Shown here: one piece after another, positions 39,640 to 40,587 of the stretch
Layout of the letters: every line of letters begins with the position of its first letter
How positions within the stretch are numbered: the first letter of the stretch is position 1
Sequence record: NC_100331.1
Length of the DNA stretch: 64,000 nucleotides
Reading direction: 5' to 3' (one strand)
Source of the DNA: Escherichia phage vB_EcoS_HASG4
The notes under the pieces: generated by a model
What the model was told of the DNA's origin: nothing
Seen by the model: the letters and a program-made list of their open reading frames with translations, nothing else
Database searches by the model: none
Program-made: the position numbers and the translations under genes

Positions 39640-40587
39640 TTACTTGTTACGCATATCCATAATCATTTGGCCATCATAACCAGTGCCAACCACAGTCTGC
39701 GGTACACCACCTTGATACTTCTGAGCACGGATCATTTCAACTTCCAGTTGCTTCCAGCGAATCATCTCAGGAGTAATGGTACGTTGCAATGCGGCGTTAG
39801 CTTCAGCTTCTTTCTTAGCTGAGTACAGTTTAGCATCTGCGTCACGTTCATTAGCAATAGCTTGGTTGTTGCGAGCTTCACGATCTGCTTCTGCTTGTTT
39901 AACTTTTTGCTGTGCTTCCTGTTCAACACGAGCCAATTCAGCTTTCGCAGCGTTAACTTGTTCTTCACGAACTTTGGTATTCTGTACCTGTTCCATGATT
40001 ACAGGCGGCAAAGTAATATCCTGAAGGAACACTTGCTTAACTGTGTAACCATAAGGGCGTGCATACTCTTCAACTTCCTGTTGAATTGCAGTTTGCAATT
40101 GAGCCTGAATTTTAGCATCAAACAAATCTTGTGCTTTAGGAACAGACTTACCGAACTCACGAATAGTGGATAACAGCTTCTCAGTTACGTACTTATCTAG
40201 AGCCTGATCCTGAGTACCTGCATTAATACGGTTGATCGGTGCCTTAGAACCATCAAACTGCAACATAACAGTCAGGTCAACAGTGGATTTAAACTTATCC
40301 TGGCTAGGAACCTGAAGTTTATCTAATTTTACAGCAATATCTTTTGTACTAAAAGTATCGAAAGATGCAAATGGATTTACAAGATGAAAACCAGGTAATA
40401 CAGGATTAGGGTCTACTTTACCCAGAAATGTTTGGGTTTTAACCGTACCATCAGAAACAATAGTATATGAATTAAAAGCTAGGATTAAACCTGCTAAACC
40501 AACTACAGCACCAATACCCCAACGTTTAATAGTGCGAATTACTTTTTGCTCAGAAGTCAGTTCTTTCATATTTTTAGTATTAAACAT
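39640..40587 (-). CDS. SPFH/band-7 (stomatin/prohibitin/HflKC-like) membrane protein
   Basis: 315 aa; N-terminal TM, band-7-like core (VDPNPVLPGFHLVNPF...), long A/E/Q-rich coiled-coil tail. Confidence 0.7.
   Translation of the reverse strand: MFNTKNMKELTSEQKVIRTIKRWGIGAVVGLAGLILAFNSYTIVSDGTVKTQTFLGKVDPNPVLPGFHLVNPFASFDTFSTKDIAVKLDKLQVPSQDKFKSTVDLTVMLQFDGSKAPINRINAGTQDQALDKYVTEKLLSTIREFGKSVPKAQDLFDAKIQAQLQTAIQQEVEEYARPYGYTVKQVFLQDITLPPVIMEQVQNTKVREEQVNAAKAELARVEQEAQQKVKQAEADREARNNQAIANERDADAKLYSAKKEAEANAALQRTITPEMIRWKQLEVEMIRAQKYQGGVPQTVVGTGYDGQMIMDMRNK

Follow-up and report, generated by a model that had tools for sequence, protein, structure and literature searches.

The stretch of Escherichia phage vB_EcoS_HASG4 DNA analysed in this study (record NC_100331.1; 64,000 nucleotides, hereafter the window) carries on its minus strand, at 39640-40587, an open reading frame (ORF) of 315 amino acids with an ATG start, as seen from the ORF list and the sequence. 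This gene encodes a true member of the SPFH (stomatin/prohibitin/flotillin/HflKC) family and its product, as modelled, has the complete architecture of a cage subunit. An earlier reading of the letters, referred to here as the original prediction, had described a phage-encoded SPFH/band-7 membrane protein with an N-terminal transmembrane helix and a long coiled-coil tail, convergent with a low-complexity operon in a virulent phage. The ORF was found on the minus strand at exactly the coordinates that it had given. The tested 4 kb were 100% identical to Escherichia phage vB_EcoS_EASG3 (MK373799.1; Demerecviridae, Tequintavirus), a T5-like phage, in agreement with the virulent lifestyle that had been assumed; a window coordinate equals the EASG3 record coordinate plus 39. 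The features within and immediately before the gene are the following.

39640-40587, minus strand: coding sequence of the SPFH/Band_7 membrane protein, orthologue of T5.080 and counterpart of EASG3_00101 (ORF list, Pfam, PHROGs, comparison with T5.080).
40593-40597, minus strand: Shine-Dalgarno-like AAGGA, 5 nt upstream of the SPFH ATG (read from the sequence).
40465-40521, minus strand: codons for residues ~23-41, predicted single N-terminal transmembrane helix (signal anchor) (hydropathy, charge counts, AlphaFold2).
39913-40434, minus strand: codons for residues 52-225, Band_7/SPFH domain according to Pfam, with a structural core at about residues 41-192 (Pfam, alignment, AlphaFold2, Foldseek).
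39778-40005, minus strand: codons for residues 195-270, predicted 'wall' helix of SPFH cages (AlphaFold2, alignment, full-length Foldseek matches).
39655-39771, minus strand: codons for residues 273-311, predicted second helix (273-290) and two short strands in the cap position (AlphaFold2).

The gene, an accessory one in a well-known phage type, was known and annotated before this analysis. The GenBank entry MK373799.1 already marks EASG3_00101 as 'conserved domain Band_7 pfam01145', and in sister phages the product is named 'SPFH domain-containing protein', 'protease regulator' or 'putative membrane protein'. The T5 annotation already links T5.080 to ORFs of Aeh1 and 44RR, and the SPFH domains of these T4-like phage ORFs were tabulated in 2006 (PMC1524935). 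In a literature search, no paper testing the function of any phage SPFH protein was found, the mentions being at annotation level only, and 'T5.080' was not found in main texts.

Residues 52-225 matched the Pfam family Band_7 (PF01145) with an E-value of 1.1e-18 and 68.4 bits, against a curated cut-off of 23.6. The SPFH/band-7 core is thus present, as judged by the same profile match that the original prediction had named as its check. Among solved structures, the nearest chains by sequence in the PDB were QmcA (E 4.5e-6; 3.8e-7 with a family profile) and prohibitin-2 (9e-5). An invariant VPSQDKxK hairpin was seen in the family alignment within the SPFH domain, at residues 93-100, and in the PDB sequence search it was aligned to IPSQ(x5)DN of QmcA. 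Akin motifs are present in other SPFH families; the hairpin was considered as a special site and is read instead as a core motif of the SPFH family.

A single-chain AlphaFold2 model, built from a 29-sequence family alignment, showed the canonical SPFH layout with a mean predicted local distance difference test score (pLDDT) of 78.5. It consists of a helix at residues 12-39, an alpha/beta SPFH domain at 41-192, a helix at 195-270, a further helix at 273-290 and two short C-terminal strands (299-311). When the model was compared with the PDB using Foldseek, full-length matches with probability 1.00 were obtained to the cage subunits of erlin1/2, prohibitin-1/2, stomatin, HflK/C, QmcA and flotillin, these being all the SPFH cages that have been solved. 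The best were erlin1/2 (E 8e-15) and prohibitin (E 4e-13); HflK/C matched at E 1e-11 to 1e-8, and the major vault protein was a more remote match. SPFH-fold proteins were also found to be common among other viruses, giant viruses included, in a BFVD search. The region described earlier as a long coiled-coil tail corresponds to residues 195-270, a single predicted helix of 76 residues rich in Ala, Glu, Gln, Lys and Arg, in which homologues differ by insertions of 11 and 22 residues (alignment). Its heptad or hendecad hydrophobic periodicity was not significant, the observed peak being reached by 109 of 500 shuffles. Thus the long helix is retained from that description and the strict coiled coil is not.

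The sole strongly hydrophobic stretch of the protein covers approximately residues 23-43. The best 19-residue Kyte-Doolittle window (residues 25-43, mean 1.79) and the AlphaFold2 helix at 12-39 both support the N-terminal transmembrane helix that had been proposed. Six Lys/Arg residues are present before this helix and one within the 15 residues after it, and the same charge bias was observed in most family members, phage as well as bacterial. From this bias, by the positive-inside rule, an N-in/C-out signal anchor is predicted, in which the N-terminus would be cytoplasmic and the SPFH domain and the helices periplasmic.

The databases give the protein a different character. It belongs to phrog_200 (PHROGs, E 4.7e-86), a family named 'lipoprotein', and RefSeq uses the same name for T5.080. 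These names are what favours a lipoprotein. The protein has 0 Cys in its 315 residues and T5.080 is likewise without Cys, so a lipobox is impossible in either of them; among 58 family sequences scanned (a few of them entered under two labels), a lipobox-like motif was seen solely in Morganella phage vB_Mm5. The label is therefore refuted for this protein and T5.080, and we regard a lipoprotein as practically out of the question. T5.080 (YP_006908) is of the same length, shows 99.1% amino acid identity and likewise lies between the bidirectional terminator and tRNA-Arg; no difference of substance separates the two proteins, and the name is wrong for both.

Comparison with the characterized SPFH systems places the phage protein among several of them. 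HflK/C of E. coli is a periplasm-facing SPFH cage enclosing FtsH. The N-terminal anchor, the SPFH domain, the long helix and, as modelled, the C-terminal cap are common to HflK/C and the phage protein, for which a periplasmic orientation is predicted; their full-length structural match is at 16-19% identity. HflK/C is however encoded by a two-gene pair, whereas the phage has one SPFH gene flanked by a tRNA and terminators. The best structural matches, erlin-1/2 and prohibitin-1/2, resemble the phage protein in the N-terminal signal anchor, in the non-cytoplasmic location of their bulk, which is predicted for the phage protein, and in having no NfeD partner; their cages face the lumen of the endoplasmic reticulum and the intermembrane space, respectively. 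They differ in being eukaryotic and hetero-oligomeric, with 15-18% identity to the phage protein, and their clients (m-AAA protease, RNF170/IP3R) are to our knowledge absent from bacteria. QmcA, the nearest solved chain when sequences are compared, builds its homo-oligomeric cage from the product of one SPFH gene. In the QmcA-YbbJ system there is an NfeD partner, whereas none was found beside the phage gene or its relatives. In addition, QmcA reportedly faces the cytoplasm, an orientation attributed to the work of Chiba et al. in 2006 and opposite to the periplasmic one predicted for the phage protein.

The distribution of the family was determined in phage and bacterial sequences. SPFH homologues were found in 747 phage records in all, 437 of them at 80% identity or more. 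The A1 protein, which served as the yardstick for close T5-likes, is present at the same level in 441 phage records, and by this measure the SPFH gene is near-universal among T5-likes. Close homologues (56-98% identity) come almost wholly from phage-sized contigs. The family occurs in T4-like Straboviridae (Slopekvirus, RB43, Cronobacter and Enterobacter phages, Aeromonas Tulanevirus), in Grimontviridae (Privateer, pSal-SNUABM-01) and in Morganella and Stenotrophomonas phages; Vibrio phages, an N4-like schitovirus among them, carry remoter homologues (25-40% identity). The T5-like protein is 71-76% identical to those of the T4-like Slopekvirus and of Grimontviridae, and on comparison of loci of 8-16 kb, the T5-like, T4-like and Grimontviridae loci share almost nothing else near the SPFH gene. 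Such identity between families with otherwise unrelated loci implies, as far as sequence comparison goes, that the gene has been exchanged horizontally among unrelated virulent phage families. An exhaustive HMMER scan of 1.84 billion representatives returned only 951 proteins at E <= 1e-3 (36 of them at E <= 1e-30), indicating a compact subfamily that leaves out most of the SPFH superfamily. An SPFH gene with 73% identity is also carried by NZ_JBHSCL010000010.1, a contig of 178,077 bp listed under Flagellimonas marina. Here a bacterial assembly probably contains a phage genome, and the gene would then not be one of Flavobacteriia; the same explanation probably holds for a Klebsiella pneumoniae 'plasmid' SPFH protein on a 174-kb contig.

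Chromosomal copies were found in a scan of species-representative genomes, in Morganella/Providencia (57-59% identity) and in methylotrophic and other marine Gammaproteobacteria (31-41% identity). The Morganella/Providencia and methylotroph genes are of the same subfamily, length and architecture as the phage gene but, unlike it, reside at stable sites in the chromosome, surrounded by housekeeping genes and outside prophages. In 11 Methylophagaceae loci the gene is preceded by trpB-trpA-accD-folC; in several strains of M. morganii it lies between TetR/ADH and HlyD/ABC-C39 genes. A rough neighbour-joining tree placed the genes of Morganellaceae within a mostly-phage clade, with the methylotroph genes as the sister group. 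Derivation of the phage gene as a copy of an E. coli host, plasmid or prophage gene was rejected, as comparison at the DNA level with 5,426 complete E. coli genomes and at the protein level with PLSDB plasmids gave no match. From the same result, the phage appears to bring its host a type of SPFH protein that the host does not have.

The gene differs from that of T5 at 46 nucleotides. The codon changes are 42 synonymous and 3 non-synonymous, which indicates strong purifying selection. A knockout phenotype had been proposed in the original prediction as a way to check it, and a published knockdown already exists: the transcriptome-wide CRISPRi-ART screen of T5 places both T5.080 (7 guides, mean fitness -4.28, p 0.85) and T5.077-079 in its 'Not Fit' class (PMC11879866, supplementary file 16). 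A natural internal deletion of the SPFH gene was found in Escherichia coli phage NG_S8 (Epseptimavirus, LC788711.1 28687-29066), where ORFs of 66 N-terminal and 55 C-terminal amino acids remain and the convergent T5.077-079 operon is also absent. The T5Mos deletion (30661-38625), considered as a further source of evidence, ends short of T5.080 and is uninformative. The SPFH gene is thus dispensable in laboratory infection, yet strongly conserved. Strong conservation in the absence of a laboratory phenotype fits functions that matter only in nature.

The transcription context of the gene was defined by the following elements.

39532-39572, plus strand: intrinsic terminator of the convergent operon (T5.077-079 homologues), -21.3 kcal/mol, z -4.5.
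39585-39616, minus strand: intrinsic terminator of the SPFH transcript, a 13-bp G+C-rich stem and then UUUUCUGUAUUU, -26.1 kcal/mol, z -4.3.
40622-40696, minus strand: tRNA-Arg(UCU), 34 nt upstream of the SPFH start codon (ARAGORN; Rfam tRNA 49.3 bits).
41494-41522, minus strand: sigma-70-like promoter TTGCTA-17-TATAAT, counterpart of T5 P16-17 (promoter scan, T5 comparison).

The scan revealed no promoter-like site between tRNA-Arg and the SPFH ATG, and for this reason the SPFH mRNA probably forms the 3' portion of an early transcript that also contains the tRNA. The promoter at 41494-41522 is the likely start of this RNAX/tRNA-Arg/SPFH transcript. Between the promoter and tRNA-Arg lies an ORF-poor stretch of ~800 nt (40697-41493, minus strand), the T5 counterpart of which is annotated 'RNAX, stable RNA with unknown functions' (719 nt). 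Within the window's stretch, at 41198-41271, ARAGORN and Rfam identified a tRNA-like element whose anticodon, ACT, is unusual (36.8 bits against a gathering score of 29); no further Rfam family was found there at E <= 0.1. At the other end, the plus-strand operon ends at 39519 and the SPFH gene at 39640, so the convergence with the low-complexity operon claimed earlier is real. Two separate back-to-back terminators lie between them and the genes do not overlap; the T5 equivalent of 39532-39572 is annotated as an efficient bidirectional terminator. In view of these terminators the convergence is a plain transcription boundary. The terminator hairpin of the SPFH transcript contains TGCGCT; for the equivalent spot (NC_005859 39746-39747), the T5 annotation gives a major single-chain interruption (nick) that matches the Pu-pGCGC consensus. 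A T5-type genomic nick is, for these reasons, probably located inside the SPFH terminator stem.

The surroundings of the gene were then searched for a partner. The plus-strand operon at 37885-39519 consists of three genes, homologues of T5.077-079, none of which exceeded a curated Pfam cut-off. The T5.077 homologue is acidic, with a Gly-rich hydrophobic membrane segment, six GxxxG motifs and a Gln/Asn/Thr-rich tail ending in CCCE; the other products are a 28%-Gln protein and a 64-amino-acid protein with 8 Cys in CC pairs. The Gly-zipper gene that had been described as adjoining the SPFH gene is therefore real, with its six GxxxG motifs; it is not directly adjacent, two ORFs lying in between. 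The functional pairing suggested for the two genes is not supported by their distribution and transcription. The observation in the original prediction is thus confirmed, whereas its interpretation holds in part, the identity of the protein being right. T5.077 homologues occur in 221 phage records, nearly all T5-like and about half of the ~440 close T5-likes, as against 747 records with the SPFH gene. In phages other than T5-likes they never accompany the SPFH gene, and each of the two convergent units ends at a terminator of its own. All-against-all comparison of nearby ORFs in seven other SPFH-bearing phage groups gave no T5.077-079 homologue and no universal neighbour. Related phage and bacterial loci each carry a single SPFH gene: no NfeD, second SPFH paralogue or protease was found beside it in the window, in the seven other phage groups or in the bacterial loci. 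A Pfam scan of the neighbouring ORFs in all three settings gave no NfeD hit. An AAA ATPase directly upstream of the SPFH gene in Grimontviridae was considered as an FtsH-like partner and rejected, being soluble, restricted to Grimontviridae and without a homologue in the window. A linkage of SPFH, HlyD and ABC transporter genes common to Morganella and Methylococcaceae was likewise discarded, since unrelated ATPases had been clustered together, a C39-peptidase ABC exporter in Morganella and a soluble ABC-F protein in Methylococcaceae.

A Hydrolase_2 gene (SleB-like, PF07486 according to a GenBank note) with a signal-peptide-like N-terminus is present at 42204-42671 on the minus strand, ~1.6 kb upstream of the SPFH gene. 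Its T5 orthologue, T5.083, is named 'endolysin' by RefSeq. In Proteus phage Privateer, a Hydrolase_2 homologue with 32% identity is found two genes away from the SPFH gene.

SPFH proteins occur across every domain of life, and the physiological role of most bacterial members is unclear. For the phage protein, a periplasm-facing homo-oligomeric cage with a conditional accessory role is the reading that we consider, on balance, probable. Early in infection, the P16-17-type promoter would drive transcription of the gene along with RNAX and tRNA-Arg. The protein would insert in the host inner membrane with its N-terminus in the cytoplasm, and would assemble, as solved SPFH proteins do, into a homo-oligomeric dome on the periplasmic face that fences off a patch of the membrane. 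Such a cage may trap or shield an inner-membrane client during infection, with a benefit only under certain conditions. HflK/C of the bacterial inner membrane and prohibitin of mitochondria partner FtsH-type AAA proteases (FtsH, m-AAA). As the same orientation is predicted for the phage protein, FtsH would be the best single candidate client, a suggestion that we hold as tentative and more apt to fail than to stand.

Several points weigh against the cage and its proposed client. The oligomerisation, localisation, orientation and expression timing are all predicted, the positive-inside rule is a statistical predictor only, and the AlphaFold2 confidence falls below 50 past residue 290, leaving the cap-forming C-terminus uncertain. 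HflK/HflC were not recovered in the PDB at E <= 1 with the single sequence or at E <= 0.01 with the family profile, and no NCBIfam family, HflK/HflC models included, matched the protein at E <= 0.01. Nothing ties the protein directly to FtsH, and the bacterial homologues lie amid housekeeping genes with no protease nearby. As for the dispensability, the authors of the CRISPRi-ART screen acknowledge false negatives (PMC11879866).

Other roles were weighed for the same protein. In superinfection exclusion or envelope protection, the cage would cover or sequester inner-membrane components needed by other phages for DNA entry, or stabilise the membrane against lysis from without, so that the infected cell is protected in the manner of T4 Imm and Sp. 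The predicted periplasmic location of the protein bulk and the position of the gene in the early region are consistent with this, as is its horizontal sharing among large virulent phages of the same hosts. A gene that is dispensable in single-phage laboratory infection and nevertheless conserved is also what a function confined to competition would produce, and in T4-like phages the gene belongs to the plastic tk region, in Aes012 at a distance of a few kb from rI. The proposal has no direct evidence, however; we know of no SPFH protein that acts in this way, and T5 already has Llp for receptor blocking. We consider it unlikely. Slightly less probable still is counter-defence, in which the cage would neutralise membrane-acting abortive-infection effectors or envelope-stress responses, for instance by confining pore-forming effectors or maintaining the proton-motive force, so that infection is completed in hosts with such systems. 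Conservation together with the knockdown phenotype forms a pattern of conditional benefit, and the gene behaves as a single-gene cassette moving between unrelated phages. It also sits in the tRNA region of T5, to which tRNA-Lys belongs, a proven anti-defence element that neutralises PARIS (PMC11464382). On the other side, no PADLOC family matched the protein at E <= 0.01, although these models describe defence and not anti-defence systems; no paper tying SPFH proteins to phage defence or counter-defence was found in the literature search, and the bacterial homologues are in a housekeeping context and not in defence islands.

A helper function in lysis timing or envelope remodelling, with the scaffold organising or restraining a holin or a secreted hydrolase, would draw on the signal-peptide Hydrolase_2 gene upstream and on its homologue near the SPFH gene in Privateer. 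This linkage is however limited to two phage groups and absent from the T4-like and Vibrio phages, the bacterial homologues have no hydrolase neighbour, and the knockdown was without fitness effect. Lysis control is accordingly less likely than either superinfection exclusion/envelope protection or counter-defence, and we rate it improbable. To return to the periplasm-facing cage, a bolder form of it is that of a portable one-gene device, traded horizontally, which captures a host machine such as FtsH or blocks superinfection or abortive-infection effectors; it is put forward as speculative and would need good fortune to prove right. If true, the trade between unrelated virulent families would be explained by a payoff realised only in natural hosts or in competition. 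The protein would then become the first SPFH scaffold from a virus to which a function is assigned, and would serve SPFH biology as a simple homo-oligomeric model. A single phage gene that is highly conserved, non-essential in the laboratory and absent in E. coli offers a clean tool for the effects of an SPFH cage on the bacterial inner membrane. The predicted periplasmic, erlin/prohibitin-like orientation, the exchange between phage families and the conservation set against laboratory dispensability are points of modest interest.

Two further genes on the minus strand of the window have database names that deserve mention. The 212-amino-acid protein at 43419-44057 has a T5 orthologue, T5.085, named 'tail fiber protein' by RefSeq. 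Along its full length it shares 30% identity (E 3e-24) with a 'septicolysin-like' protein of Salmonella phage pSal-SNUABM-01, the gene for which lies ~1 kb from the SPFH gene in that phage. As judged by sequence, the tail-fibre name for T5.085 looks doubtful. The Toprim-domain protein at 37100-37669, orthologue of T5.076, is named 'DNA primase' by RefSeq; in the CRISPRi-ART re-annotation of T5, T5.076 is listed as 'anti-defense, Known' and scored 'Semi-Fit' (PMC11879866).

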